Source of the DNA: Armatimonadota bacterium
Lineage (GTDB): Bacteria > Armatimonadota > SYMT01
Assembly: GCA_041690135.1 (NCBI GenBank)
Contig: JAWLHY010000009.1
Coordinates: 192,001-256,000, forward strand
DNA: 64,000 bases
Direction: 5' to 3'
The translations under genes and the position numbers were made by a program. The stretch's first letter is position 1. Each line of letters opens with the position of its first letter. The notes below the pieces were generated by a model. The model saw nothing but the letters and a program-made list of their open reading frames with translations, ran no database searches and was not told the origin of the DNA. Of the stretch, positions 12,375-64,000 are shown piece after piece.

Positions 12375-12402
12375 TCGAGTCGAGGAATCCGGATGCCGAC
12401 AT
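12375..12402 (+). promoter_or_regulatory. Candidate sigma28-like promoter of the polysaccharide locus
   Basis: TCGAG-N15-GCCGACAT resembles TAAA/TCAAG-N14-15-GCCGATAA. Confidence 0.4.
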
Positions 12403-12413
12403 AACCCTTGGAT

Positions 12414-12551
12414 CGCTGGAAGCCCGCGATGTGACATTTTCGGTCAAGTAGGGAGTGGAGTCGCAAGGCTCTTGACCGGCAGCGAGGGAGACACCTATTC
12501 TTAATAGATAGGTAAACTTACAACCACCCGGAAACCGGCCAATCTCCAGCG
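12414..12551 (+). promoter_or_regulatory. Structured 5' leader of the NusG-paralogue gene
   Basis: Closing stem cgctgga/tccagcg encloses cggtcaa/ttgaccg plus gagtc-GCAA-ggctc, acctat/ataggt and ccgg-aaa-ccgg. Confidence 0.5.
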
Positions 12552-12560
12552 GACGTTATC

Positions 12561-13073
12561 ATGAGTAGTGATTCTGCAGCATGGTATGCGTTGTACACGC
12601 GCAGCCGCCATGAGAAGCAGGTCGCCGCATTCCTGGAACGGCAGGGAATCGAAACCTATCTGCCACTACGTCGGGTCTGGAGTTCCCGCCAGGACCGCCG
12701 GGTGACTATTCAAATTCCGGCGCTGCCAGGCTACGTGTTCGTCCGCTGCACTCTCTACGCGGAAACCCGCGCAATGATCAAGCGCGCATCGGGGGTGTTG
12801 CGCCTGGTGGAGAACGCAGGACGCCCCGCGGCGATTCCCGATACGCAGATCGCCTCACTCCGGAAGGCGCTGGCGAACTCCTTCAACGCGGAAGGACATC
12901 CCTACCTGAAGGTTGGCGATCGCGTGCGGGTGGCCCGAGGGCCGATGGAGGGGGCTGAAGGGTATCTCGTGCGGGTGGCGGAGAACAAGCACCGTTTGGT
13001 GATCGCGGTGGACTACGTCAATCAGGCTCTGAGCGTGGAGATCGACAGTAGCTGCGTGGAGGCTGCCGCGTGA
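12561..13073 (+). CDS. Specialised NusG-paralogue transcription antiterminator (UpxY/LoaP/RfaH-like; NGN + KOW)
   Basis: WYALYTRSRHEKQVA, YLP, PALPGYVFV (NGN); LKVGDRVRVARGPMEGAEG (KOW); first gene of a polysaccharide locus and outside the secE-nusG-rplK context. Confidence 0.92.
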   Translation: MSSDSAAWYALYTRSRHEKQVAAFLERQGIETYLPLRRVWSSRQDRRVTIQIPALPGYVFVRCTLYAETRAMIKRASGVLRLVENAGRPAAIPDTQIASLRKALANSFNAEGHPYLKVGDRVRVARGPMEGAEGYLVRVAENKHRLVIAVDYVNQALSVEIDSSCVEAAA

Positions 13074-13474
13074 GCCTCGGCACGGTGTGCGAATACCGGC
13101 CGGCCGGCACTTCTGCGGAAGAAAAGCGCGAAAACACTCGCCGAATCGGGCGGTGGCTGCATTCGGATGCATGGTGTTCCCACGAGCCGTCGCCGGGTAA
13201 TAGGGCATCCAACCGCCATCAATGCGACCTCCATGGAAACTACCGCGACTCCTCGACGCAGGCAACTATACCAGGGGGCAGCGCCGGTTGACCTGGCATA
13301 CGGACGTGACCGGAGTTGCCTGGTAAGCCGCGCCGAAGGCGGGAGGGGTAGCGGCGGTTCGTTCCTTCATCGGGGACTCCCGGTCGTGTGATCGAGAGTG
13401 CTGCGCATTGTACGCAACGGCATGGGAGTCAGCGAGGATGGGAGCTGGCTCCCTTTCATCACGAGGTAGTTCGC

Positions 13475-13738
13475 ATGGGTGACACAGGTAGCCTGCAGGG
13501 AGCCGCAGTGGAGCTCTCGCCGTGCCCTTCTTCCGGTCAGTCGCTCGAAGGCGTATTGTTTGAGCTCGAGGAGCGATACGGTCGGTTGTGCGCAGAACTG
13601 GCGACGGTCGAAGCACGCCTTCGCCAGTTACGTACCGCCGCCGAAGTATGTCCGATGTGCGGCGGGTCGGGAGAGCGTTGGGTGCGAGGCGGGCTCTATG
13701 GTGAGTTGCAGCAGCGTCCCTGTCCTTGCCAGGGCTAG
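13475..13738 (+). CDS. Small hypothetical protein: coiled coil plus CxxCxGxG...CxC putative Zn finger
   Basis: GAGG RBS, ATG 13475; heptad LFELEERYGRLCAELATVEARLRQL; CPMCGGSG...CPC. Confidence 0.65.
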   Translation: MGDTGSLQGAAVELSPCPSSGQSLEGVLFELEERYGRLCAELATVEARLRQLRTAAEVCPMCGGSGERWVRGGLYGELQQRPCPCQG

Positions 13739-13821
13739 ACCTCTGCCCTCACCCTTTCAAGTGCTTTTCCAATTCGCGTCGATCGCTATAGACAACCCCG
13801 CATCAGGAAAGGGGAGACAGC

Positions 13822-16236
13822 ATGCCAGCTAACCTGGAAGAAGAAAGCTCCGGCCCCGAGTTTTCCATCCGTGACATCACGGATACACTCCGTCGCCGGA
13901 AGTGGGTGATTATCCAGGCATTCGTCATCGTGAGCGTCATCGGCCTCGTGACGGCCGCTCTCTCACCACCGGTCTACAGCACCGCTGGTCGGATGCTGGT
14001 GGAAACCCCTTCGAACAACAACTTTATCCTGACGCAGTTGGATGCCAAGGACCCGCTCAGCGCGCTGACCGTCCTGCGACAGAAGCAGAACGTTGAGACC
14101 CAGCTCGCCATTCTCCGCAGTTCCGAGTTCCGCCGGCGGGTGAACAACCGGCTCGGTGACATGGCGGGTGAGGCCGTGAGCCTGTCCTACCAGCCGCAGG
14201 AGGGCACCGGCATCATTATCGTTGCCGCGGAAGGCACCAATCCCAAGGCTTGCGCGGAGTGGTGCAACGTCTCCGTTGCCGAATACGTGGACTTCACGGC
14301 GGAGACGAACCGCCGCGCCATTCGCCAGACCCTCAAGTACCTGCGCGAAGAGCGTTCCAAAGCGGAGACCGCCCTGGCGGCCGCCGAAAAGGAATTGACC
14401 GCTTTCAAGCGGCGGACCCAGTATTCCGACAGCGACGAGGAGCGGGTCCTGCGCTTGAAGGAAGCCCTGGAGGCGCGCCAGCGTGCCGGGGCCGCCAAGC
14501 AAGAATTGCTGACGCTGGAGACCAAGCTGGCCGGAATCCAGGCGCGCCTGGACGCCGAGCCCGAGTCGTTGAATGAAGTGCGCATCATTCCCAATCCGGA
14601 AGTGGAAGCCTTCCGCGGTCGGATCGCGTCACTGAAGGCCGAGCGTGCCGTAAAGCTGGGTGAATATCAGGAGACCAGCGCCGTCATTATTGAGCTCAAC
14701 GCCCAGATTGAGGAATTGGAGAAGCAACTCGAAGGGCGTCCTCTGGTCATCAAAGAGACGTATGAAAAGCCCAACCCGAGGCTCCTGGAACTCCGCTCCC
14801 AATTGGATGACCTCCACCTCCAGAAGGCGACCTTCGAAGCGCAGTACAAGCAGCTCGCCTCGATCGCCATCCCCGCGGTTCAAAAAGTGGAGCAATTCGC
14901 GCCCTGGCAGGTGGAGCTCGGAAAGCTCGAGCGCGAACGCGCGATGTCGGAGAAGACGTTCATCGACTACGACACGAAGTTGCGCGAACTGGAGGTCCGT
15001 CAGGAACTGGTTGGAGCGACCGCGCAGTTGATGGAAGAAGCACCGGTACCGGGCGTTCCTATCCGTCCGCAGAAGGCGCAGCAGGTCGCCATGGCGGCGA
15101 TGATGGGCCTGCTGCTCGGCGTGGGCTTTGCGTTCCTCCAGGAGTTCCTCGACGACCGGGTGAACACGTCGGAAGACATCGAGCGGATCACGGCCCTGCC
15201 GACGCTCGGCGTGGTGCCAACGATTCCGGAGAGCCACAACCGCCTGCTGATCGGGCACGATGCCCTTTCCCCAGTCACCGAGAGCTACCGGTCCCTGCGA
15301 ACGAGTGTCCTCTATTCCTCGGTGGATAACCCGATCCACACGATGATCGTGACCAGCGCGCATCCGGGCGAAGGCAAGTCGATCACCAGTGCTAACCTGG
15401 CTATCGCGATGGCCCTGCAGGGCAAACGCGTCATCCTCGCCGATGCCGACCTGCGGCGCCCGAGCGTGCACCGCATGTTCCGCCTGGAAGGGGAGCCGGG
15501 TCTTACTTCCGTGCTGGCCGGTGAAGTCTCCCTGGAAGATGCGCTCCATCCAACGGCAATCGAGGGGTTGACAGTGCTCTGCTGTGGGGCATTGCCGCCG
15601 AACCCGCCGGAACTGCTGAACAGCCAGGCCATGATGGACCTGATGGCCCTGATGCGCGAGCACGCCGATCTGATCGTCTTCGACACCCCGCCGACCATTC
15701 CGGTGACGGACGCTCAGGTGCTGGCGAGTGTCACGGATGGGGCGGTGCTGGTGGTGGAAGCCGGCCAGTCCCGCAAAGCGGCGGTCAAGCACGCGCGCGA
15801 CCTGCTGGCCCAGACCCACTCGCGAGTGCTGGGGGTGGTCCTCAACAAGATCGACCAGAGCAGCAAGGGTTACTACTATCACTACTACTACCGCAGTGGG
15901 TACCGGCGCTACAAGAAGTACGGCTATGGGCGCAAGGGCTACGGCTACGGCTATGGCGGTGGCCAGGGCTACGGCAGCGGCAAGGGGTACGGCTACGGCA
16001 GCGGTGAGGGCTATGGCCAGAGCTATGGCTATGGCGAGGGTTACGGCTACGGACAGAGCTACGGCTACGGCGAGGGCTATGGCGAAGGGCGAGGGCGGCA
16101 TCGCCTGGGGGCTGCAGGGGTCGATACCGAGACTCTCTCTCCCCACGAAATGGCCGGAGGTGACTTCCGACCGGAACAGGCGGAAGAACAGGAAGAGCGG
16201 CCGCGGCTGCCCGACCGCCTGCGAGACTGGGAGTAA
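13822..16236 (+). CDS. wzc: Polysaccharide co-polymerase / BY tyrosine kinase (Wzc-like)
   Basis: Two TM helices flanking a periplasmic coiled coil; ESYRSLRTS, Walker A SAHPGEGKS, Walker A' ADADLRRP, Walker B FDTPP; C-terminal Tyr cluster. Confidence 0.95.
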   Translation: MPANLEEESSGPEFSIRDITDTLRRRKWVIIQAFVIVSVIGLVTAALSPPVYSTAGRMLVETPSNNNFILTQLDAKDPLSALTVLRQKQNVETQLAILRSSEFRRRVNNRLGDMAGEAVSLSYQPQEGTGIIIVAAEGTNPKACAEWCNVSVAEYVDFTAETNRRAIRQTLKYLREERSKAETALAAAEKELTAFKRRTQYSDSDEERVLRLKEALEARQRAGAAKQELLTLETKLAGIQARLDAEPESLNEVRIIPNPEVEAFRGRIASLKAERAVKLGEYQETSAVIIELNAQIEELEKQLEGRPLVIKETYEKPNPRLLELRSQLDDLHLQKATFEAQYKQLASIAIPAVQKVEQFAPWQVELGKLERERAMSEKTFIDYDTKLRELEVRQELVGATAQLMEEAPVPGVPIRPQKAQQVAMAAMMGLLLGVGFAFLQEFLDDRVNTSEDIERITALPTLGVVPTIPESHNRLLIGHDALSPVTESYRSLRTSVLYSSVDNPIHTMIVTSAHPGEGKSITSANLAIAMALQGKRVILADADLRRPSVHRMFRLEGEPGLTSVLAGEVSLEDALHPTAIEGLTVLCCGALPPNPPELLNSQAMMDLMALMREHADLIVFDTPPTIPVTDAQVLASVTDGAVLVVEAGQSRKAAVKHARDLLAQTHSRVLGVVLNKIDQSSKGYYYHYYYRSGYRRYKKYGYGRKGYGYGYGGGQGYGSGKGYGYGSGEGYGQSYGYGEGYGYGQSYGYGEGYGEGRGRHRLGAAGVDTETLSPHEMAGGDFRPEQAEEQEERPRLPDRLRDWE
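15871..16089 (+). repeat. Low-complexity Gly-Tyr coding repeat (ggctac/ggctat units) in the Wzc tail
   Basis: Translates to YYYHYYY...GYGYG...GQSYGYGEGYG x2; 24 Tyr. Confidence 0.9.
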
Positions 16237-16303
16237 CGAGTTGCTTACACGACGATTTCTCCGCACGGAAGGTGCTTGGGTCCAAGGAAGGAGGGGGAAC
16301 GGA

Positions 16304-17569
16304 ATGAGCTACTTCGCATCCACCTGGCGCTACGCGGTGGCGGCCGCATGCGTCATCGGGACGGCAACCGTCGCTCCGGCGCGCGCGTTTGCCCAGCAGG
16401 CGGCTCCGGCTCCGGTGGCTCCGGTGGCTCCGGTCGTCTCGAATGAAATCCCGGACCGCGACCATGTTCTCGGTCCCGGCGATGTCATTGAGATCACCGT
16501 CGAACGTTACCCAGACCTTAGCCGCACGGTCACCCTCTTCTCCGACGGCACCATCGATCATCCCACCATCGGAGCGGTGCAGTGCGCCGGCTACAAGACG
16601 GGCGAGCTTGCGCTGCGTCTGGTGGAAGCCTTCAAGAAGGAACTGCGACGTCCCACCGTCCATGTAGCGCTACGCTCCAAGTACGTACCTCCGAAGGTGG
16701 AGGTGAAGGTCGAGATCCCCAAGATCACCGCTCTCGGCGCCGTCTCGCGGAAAGGTATGATCGAACTGCCCCAGCCGAAGCCCCTACGGCTGGTACTCGC
16801 GGAAATCACCCCAACCGCCGACGCCGATCTCACCAAGATCTGCGTCCGCTATCCGGATGGAACGCGCCGTTTTGCGGACTTCAGCCAGTTCGACCTTAAA
16901 GGTGAGTCCGAGGACGACTTCCTGATCAAAGGCGGGGAGGAGATCATCCTGACCGAGCGGCCGGCGGTGCAGAAGCCGGATCCCATCAAGTTCAAGGTAT
17001 TGGGGGAAGGGGTCAACAAGCCGGGCGAAATCACCACCGAGGGGAACATCTCGATCCTGGAAGCCATTGAACGAGCCGGCGGTTTTAAACCCAGCGCTGA
17101 TCTGGAACTGGTGGAGGTCTTTGGCCCTAACCACAAGCAGACGAAGATCGTCGACGTCGAGAAGTACATGTTCGGTGACGTCACCGCCAACTACGTGGTC
17201 CAGGGGACGGACGTCATCAAAGTGCCGCTCAAGAAGCTGGAAATCAGCGTGCTCGGTGAAGTCGGCCGGCCGGGAGTGATGAACATCCGGGAAACGGAGA
17301 CACTCCTGAGTGTCTACCTGGCGGCCGGGCGGTCCACCGGTGGGGATGCGACGAAAGCCCAGTTGATCCGCCGGGGGAAGGACGGGAAGGCGGTATTCAA
17401 GGTGGTGAATATCCGCGAAATCGAGAAGCAAAAGAAGCCGGATCTTCCGCTCATGGCGGGAGACGTGGTCTTTGTTCCCCACAAGAAGACCAAACGCGGC
17501 CTTGTGTACTATCTGCAGGCGATCGCCACTCCGCTCTGGTTGGCCAGGTCGATTTCGCCCGTTCCCTAA
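16304..17569 (+). CDS. Polysaccharide export protein (Wza/OPX; Poly_export + SLBB domains)
   Basis: GGAGG RBS; HVLGPGDVIEITV..DGTIDHPTIG, AIERAGGF, VLGEVGRPG, LMAGDVVFVP; C-terminal amphipathic helix. Confidence 0.9.
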   Translation: MSYFASTWRYAVAAACVIGTATVAPARAFAQQAAPAPVAPVAPVVSNEIPDRDHVLGPGDVIEITVERYPDLSRTVTLFSDGTIDHPTIGAVQCAGYKTGELALRLVEAFKKELRRPTVHVALRSKYVPPKVEVKVEIPKITALGAVSRKGMIELPQPKPLRLVLAEITPTADADLTKICVRYPDGTRRFADFSQFDLKGESEDDFLIKGGEEIILTERPAVQKPDPIKFKVLGEGVNKPGEITTEGNISILEAIERAGGFKPSADLELVEVFGPNHKQTKIVDVEKYMFGDVTANYVVQGTDVIKVPLKKLEISVLGEVGRPGVMNIRETETLLSVYLAAGRSTGGDATKAQLIRRGKDGKAVFKVVNIREIEKQKKPDLPLMAGDVVFVPHKKTKRGLVYYLQAIATPLWLARSISPVP

Positions 17570-17590
17570 GTCCGTTCGGAAGAAGAGCTC

Positions 17591-17638
17591 CACGCGCGCC
17601 CGTAGCCGGTCCTTCGCGCTCGGCTACGGGCGCGCGTG
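17591..17638 (+). terminator. Perfect 18-bp intra-operon hairpin (terminator or mRNA stabiliser)
   Basis: cacgcgcgcccgtagccg / cggctacgggcgcgcgtg with a 12-nt loop; no U-tract. Confidence 0.55.
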
Positions 17639-17672
17639 CGGTTAGTTGGTTCCTGGTGGGGAGATCCTGTCC

Positions 17673-19157
17673 TTGAGTATCGCAGCAACGAGTGGAACTG
17701 GAGTCCGGCGCAAAGCCCCGGGCAGCGGGACATCCGCCCAGGCGCCTACGGCCAAAGTGATCGGCGCCTTGCTACTGGGTGCGCTGCCGGCGTTGATCCT
17801 GGCGGTCATTGTTGCACGAGAGGGCTTCCGGCACCCGCTGGTGTTGCCGTTGGCCGTCGTCGTTTTTGCGGTCAACGCGGTCATCGTTGTTCAGGACATC
17901 CGCAACGGTGTTGCCCTCTTCATCCTGGCGGCAGGATTATCTCCAAAGCTTCCGGGTCTCTACGAAAACCTGCGGGTTGAGGACTTCATCTTCGTTGTAG
18001 TGTTCGGGTTGTGGTTGTTCCGGCAAACCCCTGCCACGCGCCTGGCGAATCTCCGCAGCCCCATCGTCCAGCCCTTTATCGTCCTGACGGTTGTGAGTCT
18101 GCTGTCGACCATTTGGGGTGCGGCGCTAGGAAGGGTTCCGGACCTGGCTTACTCCGCACTGCTGCAGTTCAAACGGGTGGAGTACTTCCTGATTTTCTGG
18201 GTGGTTGCGACCACGGTCAAGAGCGAGCAGTGGCTGCGCATCCTGACGCTGCTCTTTGTGTTTAGCGGCGCGGGATGCGCGATGTACGGGTTCTTAAATC
18301 CTTCCGTGCCCGACTACACCAGCGCCGGCGAGACCCGGGTGGTTGGTCCGGAAGGGGAGAACTACAACACCCTCTCGGGCTACCTGGTGGTCTGCATCGG
18401 CGCCGGCGTGGGCGTGCTTCCAGATTTTCGTAAGGGTTTTGCGCGCCTGCTTTTGATCGCCTCGATCTCCCTGGCGGCGCTCGGGGTGTTGTTCAGCTTC
18501 TCCCGGGAGGGGCTGATCATGTTAATGGGCGCTCTCTTGTTCTTCGGCTTCACCCGCTATCGGATACTCCTGATCGCCGCGGCGGTCGCCTTCGTCGTGG
18601 CCCTCGGGGTGGCCGACCCCGTCCGGGAGAACCTGTCCGAGACCTTCAATCTGATCCAGAATTCCCGCGAGGCGGATCCGGGTGCCAACTCGCTTACCGC
18701 CCGGTACCGCGCGTGGGAGTATCGCTGGAACGGCTGGTTTGTGCAGCAGCCTCTGTTCGGCAACGGCGTCGGTTCCGTTGCACTTTCTGTCGACAACGAG
18801 TACTTGCTGCGTGCCTGTGAGACGGGCATTTTGGGATTTGGGGTCTTCATCTGGTGGCTTACCGCAATCGGCAAGCAGGTCGTGATCTTGCGTCGCAAGA
18901 AAGGGCTTGTGCAAACGATGTCGTTCGGGCTGGCATCGGGATTCGTGGGACTTCTCATCCAGGCGCTCGTTGCCTGCTCGTTCACCACTATCCGCACCAT
19001 GGAGGCCTTCTGGTTCTGGTTGGGGTTGGTAGCCGCCGCCAACCTGATTCAGACGCGTGCAGATCGCGAGGCCGCGGAGGCGCAGCGGCGGGCGGAAGAA
19101 CTGGCATCCAAGCAGAGCGCCACTCCGCGCCGGCGAGTTCCTTCCGTCGGTTGGTAG
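17673..19157 (+). CDS. O-antigen ligase / Wzy polymerase family protein (copy 1)
   Basis: Multi-TM; NYNTLSGYL, FSFSREG, PLFGNGVG, DNEYL (Wzy_C pattern); TTG start 17673 has a GGGGAG RBS (alternative 17646). Confidence 0.85.
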   Translation: MSIAATSGTGVRRKAPGSGTSAQAPTAKVIGALLLGALPALILAVIVAREGFRHPLVLPLAVVVFAVNAVIVVQDIRNGVALFILAAGLSPKLPGLYENLRVEDFIFVVVFGLWLFRQTPATRLANLRSPIVQPFIVLTVVSLLSTIWGAALGRVPDLAYSALLQFKRVEYFLIFWVVATTVKSEQWLRILTLLFVFSGAGCAMYGFLNPSVPDYTSAGETRVVGPEGENYNTLSGYLVVCIGAGVGVLPDFRKGFARLLLIASISLAALGVLFSFSREGLIMLMGALLFFGFTRYRILLIAAAVAFVVALGVADPVRENLSETFNLIQNSREADPGANSLTARYRAWEYRWNGWFVQQPLFGNGVGSVALSVDNEYLLRACETGILGFGVFIWWLTAIGKQVVILRRKKGLVQTMSFGLASGFVGLLIQALVACSFTTIRTMEAFWFWLGLVAAANLIQTRADREAAEAQRRAEELASKQSATPRRRVPSVGW

Positions 19158-19241
19158 GCCATGGCGACGCCCTTCCTAACCGCCGCTCTAACCGGGCGGG
19201 TCGGCACCTTCCGGCCGTCCACAACCTCAAAGTAACGCCAC

Positions 19242-20654
19242 GTGGTAGCCTTCACTTCTGATGGGATCCGGCGGTTTCGCCGCGCGCCGGTCGCCACGGC
19301 GCTACTGTGGATAGCAGCGCCCACCGCACTCCTTGCCGTGGGCCTCGCCCTCGGTGGTACCCGCGATCAGAGCGGTTTCGAGCCGTGGGAGGTGGTGTTC
19401 GTCCTGGTAGCCTGGCTGGCCGTGACCCTGGCAACTGTCATCGATTTGCGATGGGGGCTCGGCGCCTTCGTTTTGGCAGCCGGAATCTCCCCGGAGATTC
19501 CCCTCCTCAACTACACGGTGCGGTTCGAAGATTTCATTTTTGTCCCGGTGCTGACCTGTTGGGCGATGACGTGGTTCCGGCGCCGGCGAATGCCACCGGT
19601 TCATCCCCTGTTGATCTGGCCGATTCTGGCGGGCCTGGCGGTGAGCGTGTTGGCCACGGTGCGCGGCGCGCACCTCGGGCTGCTGCCCGACCCGGTCTTC
19701 TCCTGGCTGGTGCTTGCCAAGCGGGTCGAGTATTTTCTGATCTTCTGGGTGGTGGCCACCAGCATTGATGAGGAGCGGAGTGCGCGCGCACTGGTGCACT
19801 GCCTGCTGGTGGGCGCCGTGCTGTCGGCCGCCTACGGTTTGATGGTGCCGGGAGAGTGGGGCGGCGAGTCGCGAATCTTTGCCGAACGTCGGGTGTTCGG
19901 TCCCGCCGGTGAGAATTACAACACGCTGAGCGGCTACCTGGTTGTTGCCATGTGTCTCGGCCTGGCGCTTTTCCCCACGTTTTCCGATCGTCGGGAACGC
20001 GTTTGGATCGGCGGAGCGGTTCTCCTTTCCGCGGTGGGGGTCTTGCTGAGTTTCTCGCGCGAGGGTCTCATCGTACTGGTGGTGGCACTGGTCATTATCT
20101 CGGCTATGGCTGCCGTCCACCGGTTCCGGAGCATCCTGGTGCTGGCACTCGCGATCGTGCTTCTGGTGGGCGTGGTTCCGCCAGTGCGGGACAACGCGAC
20201 CTACACCGTGACCCTCATCCAACGCGCGGCGGTGGATGCTCCGACGCAGAACTCCCTGGCGGCCCGTTATCAAACTTGGGCCTATCGCTGGAATGGTTGG
20301 GTGCGTCGCGAGCCGATTATAGGGAGTGGCGTTGGCTGTGTCGCCCTCTCGGCGGACAACGAGTATCTCCTTCGTGCGTGTGAGACCGGCTTCGTCGGGC
20401 TTGCCACCTTCGCCTGGCTTCTTGCAGCCGTGGGCGCACTGATCCGCCGCGAACTGAACAAGCCCGGGTGGTCGCATTACCTGGCGTGGGGAATGGCTGC
20501 CGCGTTCGCCGCACTACTCGTTCAGGCCACCGTTGCCGTTTCCTTCACAACGATCCGCACAATGGAACCGTTTTGGTTCGCCCTCGGTTTGCTCGCGGCG
20601 CTGGCTGTGCCGCAGTCGTCTTTCCCAGGAAAGCAAAAGAAATGCGCGTCTTGA
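19242..20654 (+). CDS. O-antigen ligase / Wzy polymerase family protein (copy 2)
   Basis: Same motifs as copy 1 (GENYNTLSGYLVV, SFSREGLI, RWNGW, DNEYLLRACETG); start uncertain. Confidence 0.85.
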   Translation: MVAFTSDGIRRFRRAPVATALLWIAAPTALLAVGLALGGTRDQSGFEPWEVVFVLVAWLAVTLATVIDLRWGLGAFVLAAGISPEIPLLNYTVRFEDFIFVPVLTCWAMTWFRRRRMPPVHPLLIWPILAGLAVSVLATVRGAHLGLLPDPVFSWLVLAKRVEYFLIFWVVATSIDEERSARALVHCLLVGAVLSAAYGLMVPGEWGGESRIFAERRVFGPAGENYNTLSGYLVVAMCLGLALFPTFSDRRERVWIGGAVLLSAVGVLLSFSREGLIVLVVALVIISAMAAVHRFRSILVLALAIVLLVGVVPPVRDNATYTVTLIQRAAVDAPTQNSLAARYQTWAYRWNGWVRREPIIGSGVGCVALSADNEYLLRACETGFVGLATFAWLLAAVGALIRRELNKPGWSHYLAWGMAAAFAALLVQATVAVSFTTIRTMEPFWFALGLLAALAVPQSSFPGKQKKCAS

Positions 20655-21658
20655 TCACGGGGGGTGCCGGTTTCATCGGTACCAATCTAGCGGATGCCCT
20701 CTGCCGGCAGGGTCACCAGGTCACCGTCTACGACAACCTTTCCCGCCGGGGGGTGGAGAGCAATGCCCGCTGGCTGCGTCAGGAACATCCTCAACTCGAA
20801 TTCATCGAGGGCGACGTGCGCAATGTCGCCGACCTGGAGAGCGCATGCCGCGGAGTACAGCAGGTTTACCACCTCGCCGCGCAGGTGGCGGTGACCACCT
20901 CCGTGCAGGATCCGCGTTCCGACTTCGATGTCAATCTGCTCGGCACCTTGAACCTGCTGGAAGCGGTCCGGCGAGGCGCGCCGGAAGCACCCGTGTTTTA
21001 CACTTCCACCAATAAGGTGTACGGCGGCATGGAAGATCTTCCGGTCGAATTGCAGGGGGAGCGATATGCCTATGCCACCCTGCCCGAAGGCGTTTCCGAA
21101 CAGCGACCCCTCGACTTCCATTCCCCTTACGGCTGCTCCAAAGGCGGAGCCGACCAGTACGTGCGGGACTACGCTCGTATCTATGGCCTGCGCACGGTGG
21201 TCTTCCGCATGTCCTGCATCTATGGCCCCCATCAGTGCGGGAACGAAGATCAGGGTTGGGTCGCCCATTTTGCTCGCTGCGCCCTCCAGGGTGCGGGTGT
21301 GAACATCTACGGGGACGGCAAGCAGGTGCGCGACATTCTTTACGTCGAGGATCTCGTCCGTGCATTCCGGATGGCGGCGGAAGCGATCGATCGCACGGCC
21401 GGCCACGTGTACAACATCGGCGGCGGGCCCGAAAACACGGTTTCTCTGCTGGAGCTCCTCTCCGTGCTGGAAGAACTGTGCGGGCACAGCATTCCCCGCT
21501 CCTTCTCGGACTGGCGGCCGGGCGACCAGCGGATCTATGTCACCAACGTGCAGAGCGCCTGCAACGACTTCGGCTGGCATCCGGAAGTATCGCGCTTGGA
21601 GGGGATCAGCCGCCTATTCCAGTGGCTGAAATCCGCTGAGCGGGTGTTGGTGGGATAA
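20642..21658 (+). CDS. NAD-dependent epimerase, CDP-paratose/tyvelose 2-epimerase-like
   Basis: LITGGAGFIG, DNLSRRG, HLAAQVAVTTS, STNKVYG, SPYGCSKG, DQGWVAHF. Confidence 0.85.
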   Translation: MRVLITGGAGFIGTNLADALCRQGHQVTVYDNLSRRGVESNARWLRQEHPQLEFIEGDVRNVADLESACRGVQQVYHLAAQVAVTTSVQDPRSDFDVNLLGTLNLLEAVRRGAPEAPVFYTSTNKVYGGMEDLPVELQGERYAYATLPEGVSEQRPLDFHSPYGCSKGGADQYVRDYARIYGLRTVVFRMSCIYGPHQCGNEDQGWVAHFARCALQGAGVNIYGDGKQVRDILYVEDLVRAFRMAAEAIDRTAGHVYNIGGGPENTVSLLELLSVLEELCGHSIPRSFSDWRPGDQRIYVTNVQSACNDFGWHPEVSRLEGISRLFQWLKSAERVLVG

Positions 21659-21671
21659 AGGGGAGGGTCGG

Positions 21672-22538: not shown

Positions 22539-22570
22539 CGCGGATGTCATTTGACGCGCATGTTATCTGA
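22523..22570 (+). repeat. Three imperfect 16-bp tandem repeats across the wzm stop codon
   Basis: cgcggatgttatttga / cgcggatgtcatttga / cgcgcatgttatctga. Confidence 0.85.
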
Positions 22571-22582
22571 TCGGTTAAGCAT

Positions 22583-23848: not shown

Positions 23849-23923
23849 GAGGCACCCTACCGCGTCTCCGCCCAGTCGTCCGCAATCGTTTTCCCGTCCA
23901 GCATTCCACCGGAGTCCACAACC

Positions 23924-26658: not shown

Positions 26659-26785
26659 GAACGCATTTCTTTCGCCGTTCCGGGTTACGCCCTTGCAGAC
26701 CGGGACGGACGCTCCTCAGCTCCTGATCGAAGGGGCGGCGCGCGTACGGCGCCCCTGCGTCGGAGCAGTCCGAAAGGAACAGAGT

Positions 26786-43692: not shown

Positions 43693-43811
43693 GCGGATAA
43701 CCGAGAGGACGTGCAGACTGGGGGCATCCGCAAGCGTGGTGCAGTTTCACGTGCGCCTACTGCTGCCAACACGAATGTGGTCCGGACTCTATATCCACAG
43801 TGAGCGACCCG

Positions 43812-44030: not shown

Positions 44031-44262
44031 CAGAGATTTCCCGCCCGCATGAGAATCTGCTCGCCATTTGCGGGGAGTACCTTCTAACAGGAGCAGGTCC
44101 GTGTCGCGTCCATCCGGATATCGTCTCCACCCTGGTGCGGTAGTCCGGGCGTAGTTTCGCGGCGAAACCGCGTATCTCTTACCGCCGGTGCCCCACTGCC
44201 CCATGTTTCGGGGTGATTGCTCCGAAATCCCGCGGAGCCAGTGGCCCGCCCGAGGGTTGCGA

Positions 44263-46083: not shown

Positions 46084-46089
46084 ACCCCC

Positions 46090-53462: not shown

Positions 53463-53469
53463 AACTACG

Positions 53470-55085: not shown

Positions 55086-55459
55086 ACCCGATCCAGATCG
55101 CTCTTACGCTCTTTCTCGGAATTGCGATCACGCGCGTGGTTTCCGCCATTCGTGTGAACCAGATCAGCTGGCGGCGCGGTGTCCTCTGGATCGCGCTCTG
55201 GCTGACGGGCATTTTCGTGGTCTGGTTTCCGGACACCACCCTCGTCGTCGCGCAGATCGCTGGAGTGAAGCGCGGCGTCGATGCCGTGCTCTACGTCTCC
55301 GTGGCCCTGATGACCTACCTGATCTTCCGGCTTTATGCCGCCATCGAGAAGCAGGACCAGGTGATCACGCGCCTGGTGTCCGAACTGGCGCTCCGGGAAC
55401 TATCCGCCCCGACCAACCGGGGTGACGGTTCCGCCCCCTCCGCCCAGGGCGGCCGGTAG
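55082..55459 (+). CDS. DUF2304-family small membrane protein
   Basis: Three TM helices, GVKRGVD, ITRLVSELAL; overlaps the DPM-like GT2. Confidence 0.82.
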   Translation: MNPIQIALTLFLGIAITRVVSAIRVNQISWRRGVLWIALWLTGIFVVWFPDTTLVVAQIAGVKRGVDAVLYVSVALMTYLIFRLYAAIEKQDQVITRLVSELALRELSAPTNRGDGSAPSAQGGR

Positions 55460-55639
55460 TATTACAACGACGGCTTTAGGTTAGGCGGTTCAAACCGCAC
55501 GCTGAAACGGCACGAAGTCGCCACCACACCCACAAGTGGGTACCCGGGTGCCCGGCGCGGACTCGCCGCGCAAGTAGCGAGCTCGGCCGCAACCCAGCGA
55601 TTTCACGCACGCGTGATGGAACTTCATCGTTGTAGTATT
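55458..55639 (+). ncRNA. Candidate multibranch structured RNA in an intergenic spacer
   Basis: 13-bp closing helix with two G.U pairs enclosing several short hairpins. Confidence 0.4.
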
Positions 55640-55700
55640 GGCTTGCGTCGGTTCGCGAATCCCTCCGAATAACCCTCGTCTTTGCGCTCACACCTCTCGG

Positions 55701-55733
55701 GGCGAAGGGCACCTCGCCCGGAACCGCCGATAA
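55701..55733 (+). promoter_or_regulatory. Candidate internal alternative-sigma promoter (sigma28-like -10) for asnB
   Basis: GGCGAAGGG-N16-GCCGATAA ending 13 nt before an ATG that lacks an SD. Confidence 0.5.
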
Positions 55734-55746
55734 TCCCACCCTGTAT

Positions 55747-57762
55747 ATGTGCGGAATCGCCGGTTTCATCCATTCAACTCCACAGCCGCGGGCGCAAGCG
55801 CTCCTGCAGCGCATGAACGACTCTCTGGTGCATCGCGGCCCGGACGATGCCGGCTTTTTCCTCACGCCGGAAGGAGCCCGCGGTCCCCAGGTCGGCATCG
55901 CCATGCGCCGCCTGGCCATCATCGACCTCGCAGGCGGCCACCAGCCAATCCCTAACGAGGATGAGAGCTGCTGGATCGTTTTCAACGGGGAGATCTACAA
56001 CCACCAGAAACTGCGAAACGAACTCGAGCGGTTGGGCCATGTCTACCGCACGCAATCCGATACGGAAACGATTCTGCACGCCTACGAGGAGTACGGAACG
56101 GAGTGCGTTTCCCACCTGCGCGGAATGTTCGCCTTCGCCATCTGGGATAGTCGCCGGCAGCGGGTGCTCATCGCGCGCGACCACGTGGGGATCAAACCCC
56201 TCTACTGGACGGAAATCGGCGGCCGATTCCTGTTCGGCTCCGAGATCAAGGCGCTCTTGCGCGATCCGGAGGTCCCCCGGCGGGTCAACCCGGAAGGCCT
56301 GCACCACTACCTGACGTACCTCTACGCGCCCGCGCCCGGCACGATGTTCGAAGGCATCCACCAGTTGCCTCCGGGGCACCGCCTGATCTGGGAAGCGGGC
56401 CGTGTCACCGTGGAAGAGTACTGGAGCGGGCCGCGCGCGATGCTGGAAGGCCCCGAAGGGCCGGAAGTGTCGCTGGAAGAGGCGTGGGAGGTGCTGCGGG
56501 AGTCGGTGGATGCGCACATGCTCAGCGAAGTGCCGCTGGGCGCCTTCCTCAGCGGCGGCCTGGACTCCACGGTGATTGTCGCCCTGATGCGGGAACTGTC
56601 CCCGCACCGGGTGAAGACCTTCTCGATCGGCTTCCGGAACGCGGGTATCTACGACGAGCAGCGGTATGCCCGGATGGTTGCAGACCACCTGGGTACGGAG
56701 CATCACGCGTTCGAGGTGGATGCGGACGACGTGAGCGTGCTTCCCGAGATCATCCGGCACCTGGACGAACCGCTGGCGGACGCCTCGGTCATTCCGAATT
56801 ACCTGGTGGCGCGCATGGCGCGGGAGCACGTTACGGTGGCCCTCACCGGCATCGGCGGCGATGAGCTGTTCGGCGGATACCGGCGCTACTTCGGCGACGA
56901 CCTGGCGCGCAAGTGGGAGCGGGTACCGCGGTTCGCGCGCAAGAACCTGCTGCTGCCGGCGCTCCGCCTGGTGCCGGCCACCGGCGATACCCGCATCGGC
57001 AATATGAGCCGCCTGGTGCAGAAGTTCCTGGAGCCGCTCGACCTGGCGCCCGAGGAACGGTACATCGCGTGGAACGCCTTCTTCTCGGAAGAAGCGAAGC
57101 GAGAACTTTACGGGCGGCCGAATGGACACGTCGCCCGCTCTTCGGCGGAGCCGATGCTCCCGCATTTTTCGCACGTGGGCCACCGCCGGTTTGCCGACCG
57201 GGCGATGTACCTGGATCTGAAGAGCTATCTCCCGGGCGATCCGCTCTTTCTCTCGGACCGGATGACCATGGCGCATTCGTTGGAGGGCCGGGTACCGCTG
57301 GTGGACGTGGACGTGATGGAGTTCGCGGCTCGAGTTCCCTTGAGCCAGAAGCTCCAGGGCCAGACGACGAAACTCCTGCTGCGCCGCCTGCTGGAGGGGC
57401 GCGTCCCCGAGGAAGTCATCTACCGGCCCAAGCAGGGTTTCGGCACCCCGATCGACGTCTGGTTCCGGGGTCGGCTGGCGCCGCTGGTCGATCAGATCCT
57501 CTCTCCTGAGGTCCTGCGCAGCCGGGGCTACTTCGATCCGGGTTATGTGAACTGGCTGCGCGCTCAGCAGGCCGCCGGCAAGCGGGACTTCAGCCAGCAT
57601 CTGTGGGCGCTGATCGTGTTCGAACTATGGCACCGGGCCTACATCGATGCCGATCTGAGCGATCGAAAAGGCCTGACTTTCGAGGACCTGGGGCTCTCCA
57701 TGACCGGGACAAAGACTGTTCCATCCGGGGAAGGCCAGAGCCTGGCCGGGAGCCGGAGGTGA
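55747..57762 (+). CDS. asnB: Asparagine synthase (glutamine-hydrolysing)-family amidotransferase
   Basis: MCGIAG, HRGPD, RRLAIIDL, FNGEIYN, FLSGGLDS, GGDELFGGY, KQGF. Confidence 0.93.
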   Translation: MCGIAGFIHSTPQPRAQALLQRMNDSLVHRGPDDAGFFLTPEGARGPQVGIAMRRLAIIDLAGGHQPIPNEDESCWIVFNGEIYNHQKLRNELERLGHVYRTQSDTETILHAYEEYGTECVSHLRGMFAFAIWDSRRQRVLIARDHVGIKPLYWTEIGGRFLFGSEIKALLRDPEVPRRVNPEGLHHYLTYLYAPAPGTMFEGIHQLPPGHRLIWEAGRVTVEEYWSGPRAMLEGPEGPEVSLEEAWEVLRESVDAHMLSEVPLGAFLSGGLDSTVIVALMRELSPHRVKTFSIGFRNAGIYDEQRYARMVADHLGTEHHAFEVDADDVSVLPEIIRHLDEPLADASVIPNYLVARMAREHVTVALTGIGGDELFGGYRRYFGDDLARKWERVPRFARKNLLLPALRLVPATGDTRIGNMSRLVQKFLEPLDLAPEERYIAWNAFFSEEAKRELYGRPNGHVARSSAEPMLPHFSHVGHRRFADRAMYLDLKSYLPGDPLFLSDRMTMAHSLEGRVPLVDVDVMEFAARVPLSQKLQGQTTKLLLRRLLEGRVPEEVIYRPKQGFGTPIDVWFRGRLAPLVDQILSPEVLRSRGYFDPGYVNWLRAQQAAGKRDFSQHLWALIVFELWHRAYIDADLSDRKGLTFEDLGLSMTGTKTVPSGEGQSLAGSRR

Positions 57763-57764
57763 GT

Positions 57765-61135: not shown

Positions 61136-61245
61136 AGCGTGGAGTCTAGCAACCGTCGAGCAGTTATGCTATATGCTGTCTCGGTTGGCTACCAGCAGAG
61201 AGGATGCGCGCCGCGACCAATGCGCGCCGGGGAAGACAGGAGCGT

Positions 61246-62172
61246 ATGAGAATCGTAGTTACGGGCGGTGGAGGCTTCATCGGCTCTACACTTTCCAGAC
61301 GGCTCCTGGCATCCGGGCACACCGTTACCGTCTTCGACAACATGTCCTCGGGGGAACGGGGCGAGCGGAACATGGAGGAGTTGCTGCGGAACGGAGCACG
61401 GGCCGTGCGCGGTGACATCCGCTGCTCCGATGCATTGGCCCCGGCTCTGGTAGGCGCCGAGGCCGTGGTGCACCTCGCCGCGATGGCTTCCGTGGCCGTG
61501 AGTGTTGCAGACCCCAAGGCGTGCTGGGAGATCAACGCGCTGGGCACCCGGACCGTGCTGGAGGCAGCCCGCCGGGCCGGCGTTCGCCGGCTGGTCTTCG
61601 CTTCCACGGCGGCGGTCTACGGGATGGAGCCGCGGTTGCCCTCCCGTGAAGACGATCCACTCGCGCCGGCATCCCCTTATGCGGAAGCCAAGATCGCCGC
61701 GGAAGAGGCCTGCCACCTGGCGCATGAAAGCGGCGACCTCGAGGCGGTAGTGCTCCGGTTCTTCAATGTTTACGGGGCCGGGCAGGACCCGCTTTCATCC
61801 TACTCGGGTGTGATCACCCGCTGGATGGAAGCGTTGCGCCAGAAAGCCGCCATTCAGGTCTATGGGGACGGCAGCCAGACGCGCGATTTTGTGCACGTTG
61901 AGGATGTAGCCGGAGCTATTGAGCTGGCACTGCAGGCGCAGCCCGCGCATCCGGGCCCGATGAACATCGGCTCCGGCATCGCCACCAGCCTGCTCGAACT
62001 GCTGCAGCATCTCGGTTCCGCCTACGGAACGAAGCCGGAAGTGCAGTTCCAGCCGTTTCGAGCGGGTGATGTGCTGCACTCGCGGGCCGACATCAGCCGG
62101 GCGGCCGAGCATCTCGGCTTCCGGCCGACGGTCAACCTGTCGGAGGGTCTGCGTTCGCTTTTCCAGCGGTAG
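61246..62172 (+). CDS. NAD-dependent epimerase (UDP-sugar 4-epimerase-like)
   Basis: AGGAG RBS; VTGGGGFIG, ASTAAVYG, SPYAEAK, RFFNVYG..QDP.S.YSGVI. Confidence 0.9.
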   Translation: MRIVVTGGGGFIGSTLSRRLLASGHTVTVFDNMSSGERGERNMEELLRNGARAVRGDIRCSDALAPALVGAEAVVHLAAMASVAVSVADPKACWEINALGTRTVLEAARRAGVRRLVFASTAAVYGMEPRLPSREDDPLAPASPYAEAKIAAEEACHLAHESGDLEAVVLRFFNVYGAGQDPLSSYSGVITRWMEALRQKAAIQVYGDGSQTRDFVHVEDVAGAIELALQAQPAHPGPMNIGSGIATSLLELLQHLGSAYGTKPEVQFQPFRAGDVLHSRADISRAAEHLGFRPTVNLSEGLRSLFQR

Positions 62173-62208
62173 CCTTTGCCTATCCCCGCCGGAGTTTTCA
62201 ACGAGCCC

Positions 62209-63546
62209 ATGTCTCAACAGCCTCGACCGATTCGTGTCCTGCACATCATCACCCGGATGGTGCGGGGGGGAGCTCAAGAGAATACACTGGCCAACGTGGC
62301 CGGTCTCCACGGGCCGGAGTGGGAGAGTTGCCTGGTTACGGGTCCAGCTCTGGGGCCGGAGGGGAGCCTGGAAACCAAGTGCGAGGCGGCCGGGATCCGG
62401 ATGCTCCATGTGCCCTCGCTGGTCCGGGAGATTTCGCCCCGCCAGGACCGCATTGCGCTGGCGCACCTGGTCCGCATCCTCCGGCAGGAGCGTCCTCACC
62501 TCGTCCACACCCATACCTCGAAGGCGGGAATCCTGGGTCGGCTCGCAGCCCGGATTGCCCGCGTTCCGGTGGTGATCCACACCCCCCACGGTCACGTGTT
62601 CCACAGTTACGAAGGCAAGCTGAAGTCGAAGGTCTTCGTGGGCGTGGAACGTAGCTGCGCCTCCATGGCACAGCGACTGGTGGCGCTCACCGACCGCGAA
62701 ATGCAGGAGCACCTTGAACTGGGGGTAGGCCGTCCGGAGCAGTGGTCGATCATCCACAGCGGCGTCGACTTCCGGCCGTTCGAAGCGGCCCGGGGCGGCG
62801 GTGAGCGCGTGCGGGCGGAACTGGGAATCCCTCCCCAGGCGCCGGTGGTCGGCACGGTGGGGCGCCTGGTGGCCATCAAGGGGCAGGAATTCCTCCTGGA
62901 AGCGGCGGCATCCCTGGCCGGGGAGTTTCCGGACCTGCATCTGCTCATGGTGGGGGACGGTCCACTCCGCACCCAACTGTTGGAAATGGCGCGGGGGGCC
63001 GGCCTGAACACCGTCGAACATCCCGCGCCGGGTGTTGCAGGGGAAACGTTAAGAACGTCCGGAAGCGCGGCCCCGGCTCCGACCGTGCATTTTGTGGGTC
63101 TCCGGAAGGACGTGGGTCGGATGCTGTCGGCGATGGACGTGTTCGCTCTTCCATCGCTCAACGAGGGAATGGGGCGCGTGCTGGTGGAAGCGATGGCCAT
63201 GGAGCTTCCCTGCGTGGCTTCCCAGGTCAGTGGGATTCCGGACGTCGTGGAAGACGGGTCCACCGGATTGCTGGTCCCCGCGCGCGACGCCGCTTCCCTG
63301 AGTGGGGCTCTCCGTCGCCTACTCGCATCTCCGGACCTGGCCCGCGCCATGGGGCAGCGGGGTCGGGCTCGCGCGGTTCCCGGTTACAGCGTGGAGGAAA
63401 TGCTGGCGCAGTTGGAGAGGCTCTACCGACAAGCGCTCCGGGAGCGCGGGATAGTGCCCCCCGCGGCGACCGAAAATATCGACCCGGGGGACTGCAGACG
63501 TACTTTGCCCGTCGCTGATGGGGGAGAGGCTGTAAGCCGAAGATAA
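62209..63546 (+). CDS. Glycosyltransferase family 4
   Basis: VLHIITR..GGAQEN, HTHTSKAG, HTPHG, GRLVAIKG, EGMGRVLVEAMA. Confidence 0.9.
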   Translation: MSQQPRPIRVLHIITRMVRGGAQENTLANVAGLHGPEWESCLVTGPALGPEGSLETKCEAAGIRMLHVPSLVREISPRQDRIALAHLVRILRQERPHLVHTHTSKAGILGRLAARIARVPVVIHTPHGHVFHSYEGKLKSKVFVGVERSCASMAQRLVALTDREMQEHLELGVGRPEQWSIIHSGVDFRPFEAARGGGERVRAELGIPPQAPVVGTVGRLVAIKGQEFLLEAAASLAGEFPDLHLLMVGDGPLRTQLLEMARGAGLNTVEHPAPGVAGETLRTSGSAAPAPTVHFVGLRKDVGRMLSAMDVFALPSLNEGMGRVLVEAMAMELPCVASQVSGIPDVVEDGSTGLLVPARDAASLSGALRRLLASPDLARAMGQRGRARAVPGYSVEEMLAQLERLYRQALRERGIVPPAATENIDPGDCRRTLPVADGGEAVSRR

Positions 63547-63616
63547 GGGTTGGACATCGGTGGGGGCTGCGGGAACGTCGCTGGCCGGAGCCGCAAAGAG
63601 CCAAGGAGTTAGGACG

Positions 63617-64000
63617 ATGAAAGTACTGGTCACCGGCGGAGCCGGTTACATCGGATCGAACCTGGTGGACACGCTGATGGCGCGTGGTGACGAGGTTTTC
63701 ATCATCGACAATCTGTCGACCGGACGGATCCAGAACATCCGCCATCACCTGGACAACCCGCGGTTCCACTTCGTCAATGACACGATCCTCTCGCTCGGCA
63801 CGCTCGAGCGCCTGGTGGATCAGGTAGACCTCATCTACCACCTGGCGGCGGCCGTCGGTGTCAAGTACATCGTGGACGATCCGATCGGGACGATCACCAC
63901 GAACGTGCGCGGCACCGAGAACGTGTTGGCGATGGCCTACCGGTACTGGAAGCGCGTGGTGGTGGCCTCCACCAGCGAAGTGTACGGCAAGTCGACGGGC
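63617..64000 (+). CDS. NAD-dependent epimerase/dehydratase, truncated by the window end
   Basis: AAGGAG RBS; MKVLVTGGAGYIGSNL..DNLSTG..YHLAAAVGV..ASTSEVYGK (translated by hand; absent from the ORF track). Confidence 0.9.
   Translation, partial: MKVLVTGGAGYIGSNLVDTLMARGDEVFIIDNLSTGRIQNIRHHLDNPRFHFVNDTILSLGTLERLVDQVDLIYHLAAAVGVKYIVDDPIGTITTNVRGTENVLAMAYRYWKRVVVASTSEVYGKSTG

Follow-up and report, generated by a model that had tools for sequence, protein, structure and literature searches.

Can a polysaccharide locus of more than 50 kb be served by a dedicated transcription factor and, if so, at what site would that factor be loaded? This question is raised by a 64,000-nt stretch of DNA from an Armatimonadota bacterium (GenBank assembly GCA_041690135.1, contig JAWLHY010000009.1, positions 192,001 to 256,000), hereafter the window, in which > 51 kb are occupied by a polysaccharide cluster of ~45 plus-strand genes, the first encoding a specialized paralog of NusG. 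Specialized NusG paralogs control capsules, toxins, and antibiotic clusters and, to our knowledge, loading sites are known only for RfaH, the UpxY proteins of Bacteroides, and LoaP. A sequence-only reading of the window had proposed that the locus uses both a dedicated factor and several internal RNA elements located in its four long spacers. We find that one of these spacers carries a conserved leader element, a hairpin followed by a short tail, that recurs at two other polysaccharide export operons of the same genome and in related genomes and that, by searches of the literature and of Rfam, is previously undescribed. We lean modestly toward regarding this element as an ops-like loading site for the paralog. 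What remains of the long spacers is accounted for by inserted dispersed repeats or by unique sequence in which no structure was detectable.

Anatomy and distribution of a hairpin-plus-tail element

Blastn of the second long spacer against related loci picked out a conserved stretch of ~40 nt. It comprises a hairpin of the form CTCYCGG...YCGAGAG followed by the tail TGCTRCGCAATGTAC, which together make an element of ~45 nt; the general form of the tail is TGCTRCGCAnTGTAC, or UGCURCGCAAUGUAC in RNA. The stem of the window copy has its 5′ half at 13377–13384 and its 3′ half at 13391–13398, separated by a loop at 13385–13390, and the tail TGCTGCGCATTGTAC follows at 13399–13413. This places the element ~300 nt past the paralog gene and 62 nt 5′ of the ATG at 13475, with which a gene for a small Zn-finger protein begins. 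The features at the head of the gene run are as follows.

12257–12560, plus strand: leader or promoter region of the paralog gene, without a detected conserved or structured element
12561–13073, plus strand: UpxY-family NusG paralog of 170 aa, first gene of the run (NF033644, PF02357)
13074–13373, plus strand: unique 300-nt stretch between paralog gene and element (folding z −0.02 on the plus and −0.79 on the minus strand; no repeat)
13374–13417, plus strand: hairpin-plus-tail element, a candidate ops-like loading or pause site (blastn against relatives, pattern search, model R1)
13475–13738, plus strand: 87-aa Zn microprotein (20 homologous clusters; no Pfam domain)
13822–16236, plus strand: Wzc-like polysaccharide co-polymerase and bacterial tyrosine kinase (BY-kinase) with a long Tyr/Gly-rich tail (Pfam Wzz, GNVR, and P-loop families)
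16240–17569, plus strand: Wza-like outer export protein, start approximate (Pfam Poly_export and SLBB; one of five Poly_export genes in the genome)

The element pattern occurs once in the window against an expectation of zero, and when the full length of the window was scanned with a covariance model (R1), all filters being off, a single match of 50.5 bits was returned, the next best scoring 10.3 bits. The window therefore holds no internal reload sites of this kind. Thus, the combination of factor and RNA elements that had been proposed stands as far as the NusG paralog and one conserved element are concerned, but not in the plurality of elements. In the unique stretch between the paralog gene and the element, which by blastn matches only itself in the genome, a promoter may be located.

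From 10 genome instances a covariance model was constructed, which had 67 matches in related and metagenome loci, and the assignments of 5′ stem halves given here rest on its alignment. Among the 64 distinct aligned rows, 89% of cells pair, compared to 26–49% when the partner is slid along the sequence. One stem pair is represented by GC (20), GU (15), AU (10), and CG (4); the covariation score of 0.104 (0.073 in shuffles) and the 17 cells changed on both sides (4.0 ± 4.1 in shuffles) were each reached by none of 500 shuffles. The remaining stem pairs are nearly invariant and for this reason uninformative on covariation. Both stem halves are kept across copies in which loop length varies from ~3 to 16 nt. 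Conservation extends to positions that were left free in the search pattern, including a TGTAA before the 3′ stem half (45–56 of 58 instances), A15 (54 of 58), and the AA that precedes TGTAC, and it ends abruptly past GTAC. The 70 nt 5′ of the hairpin contain neither a conserved block nor a conserved promoter. At gathering scores, the only Rfam match in the window was a transfer-messenger RNA (tmRNA), with EAR, JUMPStart, and other leader families unmatched, and at E ≤ 5 the region 12200–13850 yielded only a chance-level small RNA match on the minus strand. A literature search with the 10-mer CGAGAGTGCT returned nothing related among the matches listed.

The first gene of the run was identified in the sequence-only reading as a specialized NusG paralog, an assignment that profile searches confirm: ORF 12561–13073 matches the UpxY-family model NF033644 at 143.4 bits, above its cut-off of 100, over profile positions 1–164 of 164. 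The same open reading frame (ORF) falls below the cut-offs of the models for RfaH (TIGR01955, 82.4 bits versus 144.5; NF006534, 60 versus 124), LoaP (NF033641, 76.2 versus 125), and NusG (57 versus 135.7). The NusG domain (PF02357) spans residues 7–100 at 83 bits, and an AlphaFold2 (AF2) model with a predicted local distance difference test (pLDDT) score of 81 comprises an NGN domain and a C-terminal domain with beta strands at residues 121–168 (pLDDT 64–80). The protein thus has the profile score, the NGN plus KOW-type domain composition, and the position as first gene of a polysaccharide gene run that characterize the UpxY family. A scan of the whole genome found no other match over the NF033644 cut-off (143 bits for the paralog itself); a weaker match of 63.8 bits on contig C2 is presumably the housekeeping NusG. 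Among 41 genomes searched, orthologs that were 61–78% identical were detected in G001, G005, G006, and G007, the last of which has two copies, and more distant paralogs (45–48% identity) were detected in G008, G023, and G036. The remaining genomes had weak matches only (18–31% identity), which we take to be housekeeping NusG, and G032 had no match. A search of the literature found no paper linking NusG paralogs with Armatimonadota, and the passages retrieved from two reviews make no mention of such a link.

Three copies of the element are present in the genome, on contigs C9 (that of the window), C17, and C1, each just 5′ of a polysaccharide export operon whose strand it shares. The operons include genes for Wzc and Wza on C9 and C1 and for an unassigned 680-aa protein followed by Wza on C17, such that, of five Poly_export loci in the genome, three are associated with the element. 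The absence of a shared primary-sequence motif among the spacers, as stated in the sequence-only reading, therefore holds within the window but not beyond it, since the element of the second spacer is common to two other operons of the genome and to relatives.

Exact matches among 401 genomes of the phylum were restricted to G000 (three), G001 (one), G005 (one), G006 (three), and G007 (one), and one-mismatch matches elsewhere were about as frequent as matches to a reversed control. The genomes with exact matches are the only ones of the 41 tested that encode a paralog with at least 61% identity. In G001, G006 (twice), and G007, the element lies 75–140 nt past the paralog gene. Counting a one-mismatch copy on contig C16 of G001, there are 10 instances at nine genome loci, and each of these loci is followed by a gene for Wzc, Wza, a uridine diphosphate (UDP)-sugar dehydrogenase, or the Zn protein. 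Downstream of the additional copies on G006:C32, G005:C1, and G001:C16 are operons of the type Wzc-Wza or dehydrogenase-Wzc-Wza. The contig that carries the element in G005 is not that of the paralog, which points to action in trans. A scan of representative genomes recovered 41 stretches that match the pattern, but a hairpin was present only in six instances at five loci (L084, L089, L092, L093, and L096), none of them beyond those of the phylum scan; the other 35 loci were rejected as chance matches, being about the number expected of a 33-bit pattern over that amount of sequence.

Screening of metagenomes revealed 53 instances at 46 loci, four of which look like chance matches (no hairpin, within coding sequence) and were set aside. 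Among the remaining 42, which are not independent because several contigs are near-duplicates, the element is followed by clear polysaccharide genes in 30 (wzc, zn-wzc, dehydrogenase, wza, ABC-2, GT2, and sugar-nucleotide enzymes), by ambiguous genes in two (encoding a methyltransferase or an AsnB-like protein), by genes of another or unknown kind in five, and by the end of the contig in five. The paralog gene is directly upstream on the same strand in 12 of the 42 and downstream in one (L141). The element therefore occurs in leaders of polysaccharide operons and co-occurs with the paralog, as would an ops-type site, albeit among kin that are not independent.

Tandem copies, 40–41 nt apart, were present in five metagenome loci (L119, at 565–667; L126; L131; L132; and L152), where they form arrays of two to three in which each 5′ stem half begins at the GTAC of the preceding copy. 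At three other loci (L122, L135, and L151), the element precedes genes that are not obviously related to polysaccharides, including those for DUF3466-like proteins and an RHS-repeat protein, and at L129 and L147 it is located inside the locus, between wza and transporter genes.

Possible function of the element

The UpxY system of Bacteroides was reportedly described by Chatzidaki-Livanis et al. in 2009. The opsX sites of Bacteroides, according to Saba et al. (2024; PMC11685472), combine an RNA pause hairpin that extends to −12 to −9 with a non-template DNA hairpin within −11 to +1 and an elemental-pause-like consensus, and the upstream duplex DNA is recognized as well. In sequence, the element described here matches this anatomy. 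If the pause occurs after T13409, then G13400 would occupy −10, T −1, and G13410 +1, in agreement with the G−10/Y−1/G+1 pause consensus, which is supported by PMC7819879, although several of these positions were fixed by the search patterns. The putative −1 position, which was free in the pattern used for the genome scan, is T in nine of the 10 genome instances and C in the other, and G+1 is invariant. The 3′ end of the hairpin would then be at −12, or at −9 with a UGC extension, and a TGC-TRC-GCA mini-hairpin could form in the non-template strand within −11 to −3.

From this likeness we infer that the element is transcribed and that a polymerase transcribing the leader would pause after the U of ...GCAAU|G, where −10 and +1 are G and −1 is a pyrimidine, the pause being stabilized by the nascent RNA hairpin that ends 12 nt (or 9 nt via UGC) upstream. 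The paralog would recognize the exposed non-template strand, in which TGC-TRC-GCA may fold into a mini-hairpin of 3 bp, together with the conserved upstream duplex (TGTAAYCGAGAG). It would then displace NusG, and the polymerase would become able to resist pauses and terminators along the whole operon. Since the element also heads two unlinked export operons, one factor would serve a small regulon in the manner of RfaH.

Comparison with the three known systems indicates what is shared and what is not. As in the Bacteroides UpxY/opsX system, an UpxY-family NusG paralog heads a polysaccharide operon, and the hairpin ending ~9–12 nt before a putative G−10/Y−1/G+1 pause, the possible mini-hairpin, and the conserved upstream duplex have their counterparts in opsX, the likeness here being one of sequence anatomy. 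Unlike in Bacteroides, there is one paralog per genome rather than one per locus, and the element is located downstream of the factor gene, is present at unlinked operons, occurs in tandem copies, and belongs to the phylum Armatimonadota. No UpxZ-like gene was detected after the paralog gene; the gene that follows encodes the Zn microprotein, which lacks matches in Pfam and NCBIfam, libraries that probably include UpxZ models. Nor was there evidence for an ops site upstream of the paralog's own gene, a trait of UpxY-UpxZ loci: no motif, and specifically no 12-mer, is common to more of 17 orthologous leaders than in shuffled controls, and in the window, as in the 12 metagenome loci, the element follows the gene. 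The leader element that had been proposed at 12.41–12.56 kb is thus not borne out, given that this leader also folds no better than its shuffles.

The single NusG paralog that would act in trans, the short element upstream of many polysaccharide gene starts, and the putative consensus-type pause are features in common with Escherichia coli RfaH and its ops/JUMPStart sequence. In contrast to RfaH, the gene for the factor is in most cases linked to one of its putative target operons, the RfaH model scores below its cut-off (see above), and the C-terminal domain is modeled by AF2 as beta strands rather than an alpha hairpin, which is not conclusive. The E. coli ops 12-mer GGCGGTAGnnTG has no exact match in the window; its one-mismatch matches number eight compared to 5.0 ± 2.2 expected, with none on the plus strand of the leader. 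The gene for LoaP of Bacillus velezensis reportedly neighbors a long biosynthetic operon, and a role in recruiting LoaP has been ascribed to a small hairpin in the leader. The position of our paralog beside a long biosynthetic operon and the presence of a small leader hairpin are similar, but the putative targets are polysaccharide operons rather than the polyketide operons of LoaP, and the LoaP model likewise scores below its cut-off. We know of no description of a conserved single-stranded tail with a pause consensus as a feature of LoaP.

Several observations weigh against an ops-like site. The element is downstream of the factor gene, unlike opsX of Bacteroides. The 10-sequence seed alignment alone has no significant covariation, and in the larger alignment, which is fitted to the model, the stem is mostly conserved in sequence and covaries strongly at one pair only. 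The window copy has a C·A mismatch in its stem, and its hairpin is outside the local minimum-free-energy fold. The 21-mer served as the search pattern for the collections, so that part of the invariance within it is a consequence of the search. With respect to distribution, two of the five Poly_export loci of the genome lack the element; no element adjoins the paralog gene of G005 or the second of the two copies in G007; and G008, G023, and G036, with their more distant paralogs, contain neither the element nor any shared non-coding block. Finally, the co-occurrence with the paralog is phylogenetically confounded, since the genomes concerned are close kin.

An unlikely, if credible, alternative is that the element is a DNA-level promoter or operator of the polysaccharide operons, that is, a site for an alternative sigma factor or a transcription factor formed by TGTAAY and TGTAC blocks 16 nt apart, and not a transcribed loading site. 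It is always upstream of operons and on their strand, its very strong sequence conservation is accompanied by little covariation, no conserved promoter is evident 5′ of it, and TGTAAY-N16-TGTAC may recall promoters of the extracytoplasmic function (ECF) type. However, the 16-nt ‘spacer’ would be the most invariant part of such a site, whereas promoter spacers are generally variable. A complementary 5′ half at a variable distance (loops of ~3–16 nt), with one pair covarying through four types, would be needless in a duplex-DNA site. The tandem copies 40–41 nt apart and the confinement of the element to genomes with a close paralog also argue against this interpretation.

We give still less credence to a role exerted purely at the level of RNA, in which the leader hairpin and tail would be bound by the C-terminal domain of the paralog (as proposed for LoaP) or by another protein, or would control translation or stability of the first gene, with no ops-type contact to DNA. 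Hairpin potential in nearly all copies, strand specificity, a position 40–180 nt before the first start codon, and tandem arrays that resemble multi-site protein-binding leaders are all consistent with such a role. The loop-proximal TGTAA and the 15-nt tail are nevertheless conserved as sequence, and the tail fits the pause consensus, such that recognition within a paused complex accounts for the data at least as well; moreover, no Rfam family is matched and the start codon is not at a fixed distance.

The ops-like interpretation, which we continue to favor, has the merit of providing a directly testable handle, in the form of a sharply defined candidate site of 27–45 nt that is suited to pause assays, factor-binding assays, and reporter read-through. 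If it is correct, the logic of opsX, a pause hairpin plus non-template DNA, would extend to a distant lineage in a wiring in which one factor serves several operons and the site follows the factor gene.

A clade-restricted zinc microprotein

The 87-aa Zn-finger ORF that the sequence-only reading had noted at 13475–13738 is a real, conserved, and clade-restricted gene. Its 20 homologous clusters comprise proteins of 60–96 aa, none with a Pfam domain, of which three are named ‘hypothetical protein’ and 17 are nameless. The sequence is laid out as a long helix (LFELEERY..LC.ELA.VE.RLR.LRTAA) followed by CP.CGG.G.RW.RGGLYGE.Q.RPC.C, which holds a zinc knuckle of the form CxxCGG...CxC with an invariant RGGLYGE. 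In the AF2 model (pLDDT 82.5), residues 20–87 are confident and form a helix (20–55) and a beta hairpin. No match was found in Pfam (E ≤ 0.1) or NCBIfam (E ≤ 0.01). Searches with the model returned nothing at E ≤ 0.001 in the PDB (Foldseek), generic helices with a best Z of 4.2 in a wide VIA-align search, and a best score of 0.81, below a meaningful level, in an Atlas fold search.

The microprotein gene is always directly before an orthologous wzc, the order being paralog, element, (dehydrogenase), zn, wzc, and it is absent from the two other element-bearing operons of the genome. From this context it appears tied to this subfamily of Wzc at least as much as to the paralog. Prediction of a complex of the paralog with residues 24–87 of the microprotein yielded a score of 0.00 and no verdict on an interaction. 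It is improbable, in our estimation, that the clade runs an RfaH-style regulon on an UpxY-family protein in which a bipartite signal of novel sequence and placement, past the factor gene, at unlinked operons, and in some cases in tandem arrays, is combined with the Zn microprotein as an UpxZ-like modulator of the factor or the polymerase; were this so, it would constitute a new protein-plus-nucleic-acid processivity module in Armatimonadota.

A UDP-sugar dehydrogenase gene is located between the element and the Zn gene in G001, G006, and several metagenome contigs (e.g., L035, 1660–2991; L033, 8615–9919). Blastn of the second spacer against relatives detected neither this gene nor a remnant of it at 13413–13475 of the window, and a 33%-identical dehydrogenase is encoded further downstream (26693–28147).

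Spacers, repeats, and remaining features of the locus

The window is part of contig C9 of a genome of 9.1 Mb in 25 contigs and has a G+C content of 64%. As had been noted before, ORFs on the plus strand follow one another without a break from 12561 up to the end of the window at 64000. Pfam matches were obtained for 41 of 46 submitted ORFs, nearly all with polysaccharide functions, and two of the five blanks are non-genes (a wrong-frame ORF at 13479 and an ORF within a repeat at 43800). G+C content at third codon positions favored the plus-strand frames over their minus-strand shadows, including where Pfam is silent. With gene starts that are approximate, we count 45 genes and 32 of 44 junctions of ≤ 50 nt, in line with the earlier description of most junctions as tight.

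Collectively, the genes define a very long polysaccharide locus, of capsule, exopolysaccharide, or O-antigen type, that is ordinary but for two repeat insertions and one leader element. It encodes a Wzc-like co-polymerase/kinase, a Wza-like exporter, two Wzy_C proteins, an ABC-2 Wzm/Wzt pair, many sugar-nucleotide dehydratases, epimerases, and dehydrogenases, > 15 glycosyltransferases of families GT2 and GT4, methyltransferases, a carbamoyltransferase with an SxtJ-like protein, and an AsnB-like amidotransferase. The remaining features of the window are the following.

6558–6913, minus strand: tmRNA gene (RF00023, 158 bits), outside the gene run and 5′ of it
10733–12094, minus strand: tetratricopeptide repeat (TPR) gene, divergent from the NusG paralog gene
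17586–17643, plus strand: GC-rich hairpin with 18 perfect pairs, at the junction of wza and the first gene of Wzy type
17646–64000, plus strand: ~40 further polysaccharide genes, by Pfam and ORFs (Wzy-like, ABC-2 Wzm/Wzt, sugar-nucleotide enzymes, GT2/GT4, methyltransferases, carbamoyltransferase, AsnB-like)
43802–44005, no strand assigned: copy of dispersed repeat A, resembling a miniature inverted-repeat transposable element (MITE) (blastn, nhmmer)
55461–55574, plus strand: copy of dispersed repeat B, ~114 nt (20 loci in the genome)

The long spacers had been placed correctly (the leader, 13074–13474, 43693–44262, and 55460–55746), but the expectation that each holds more structure than chance held for one at most. 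Against dinucleotide shuffles, whole-spacer folding z scores were −0.15 (12351–12560), −0.86 (13074–13475), −2.32 (43693–44260), and +0.16 (55460–55746), and when pieces of the spacers were folded on both strands, only 43802–44005 stood out (−3.67 on the plus and −2.29 on the minus strand). The excess in the third spacer is attributable to its copy of repeat A. Nested helices with G·U pairs on the mRNA strand had been noted in each long spacer; no piece of any spacer folds preferentially as the plus strand, and such helices are therefore what chance yields for this composition. Rfam searches of 43600–44300 and 55400–55800 returned nothing relevant, so that for the spacers as a whole no relevant family was found.

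Blastn of 13 spacers against the genome showed instead that two of the long spacers, those at 43.7–44.26 and 55.46–55.75 kb, hold repeats that are dispersed genome-wide, at 91 and 20 loci that are mostly intergenic, rather than RNAs specific to the locus. Two rounds of nhmmer gave 180 matches to repeat A, which merge to 91 loci (median length 181 nt) because the repeat is palindromic and matched on both strands. It has terminal inverted repeats (GTAGGGAA...TTCCCTAC) that are 148 or ~168 nt apart and long internal complementarity, which in the window copy includes a palindrome at 43871–43949. Both terminal repeats, > 100 nt apart, occur in 94 of the 180 nhmmer matches, corresponding to fewer loci owing to the matches on both strands. 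Overlap with crude ORF calls, which make up 77% of the genome, is < 20% at 79 of the 91 loci. A search of five relatives did not find repeat A, and it may thus have expanded recently in this lineage. The flanks that were inspected had no obvious target-site duplication, and the ends of the element may lie outside the repeats used. From these sequence features, repeat A is best read as a MITE-like mobile repeat. Terminal inverted repeats, a long palindrome, and mostly intergenic loci are also features of Correia, repetitive extragenic palindromic (REP)/bacterial interspersed mosaic element (BIME), and enterobacterial repetitive intergenic consensus (ERIC) repeats; among named families, those of Rfam gave no match.

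Repeat B occupies the first 114 nt of the spacer at 55460–55746, and 17 of its 20 loci are intergenic. Its hairpins are kept by compensatory changes, which in the first are double changes, GGCGGTT/AACCGC in some copies and GGCGACT/AGTCGC in others. No Rfam family was matched by repeat B, which could be REP-like or could represent a family of small structured RNAs. Long spacers in such polysaccharide loci can thus simply be repeat insertions.

The one strong local hairpin of the locus is outside the spacers that the sequence-only reading had listed. The short spacer after wza (17570–17650) folds at −48 kcal/mol (z −4.33; reached by none of 200 shuffles) and is the only strongly structured one among the short spacers; it holds a perfect 18-bp inverted repeat with arms at 17591–17608 and 17621–17638. 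A 13-bp hairpin is present at the equivalent junction in G005, and at the same settings no hairpin was found past wza in G001 or G006. We speculate that the hairpin at 17586–17643 is a candidate internal terminator, processing site, or stabilizing site that a processive complex would have to pass.

It is very improbable that several independent structured RNAs in the four spacers serve as reload, processing, or stabilizing sites on a transcript of > 51 kb under modulation by the Zn-finger protein, for even though the repeat copy at 43802–44005 would make a long hairpin if transcribed, the hairpin at 17591–17638 is of a kind that could affect processing or stability, and the element is internal to the locus in L129 and L147, three of the four spacers fold like shuffles, two are taken up by repeats that are dispersed through the genome and either missing from five relatives or not locus-specific, the element has no second copy in the window, and the related loci compared show no conservation of the spacers.

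Three further observations concern the products of the locus. The C-terminus of the Wzc-like protein (15900–16236) is a Tyr/Gly-rich tail of ~100 residues (YYYHYYYRSGYRRYKKYGYG...) with GYG repeats that is kept in G001 and G006; tyrosine clusters of BY-kinases are usually much shorter. At 17646–23848, two Wzy_C-type genes and an ABC-2/Wzt transporter pair are encoded in one plus-strand run, such that the run may specify two or more export pathways, or two or more polymers. Lastly, a carbamoyltransferase gene is followed by one for a small SxtJ-like protein (PF19588, 32 bits) at 44263–46530, a pair that suggests O-carbamoylation of the polymer.

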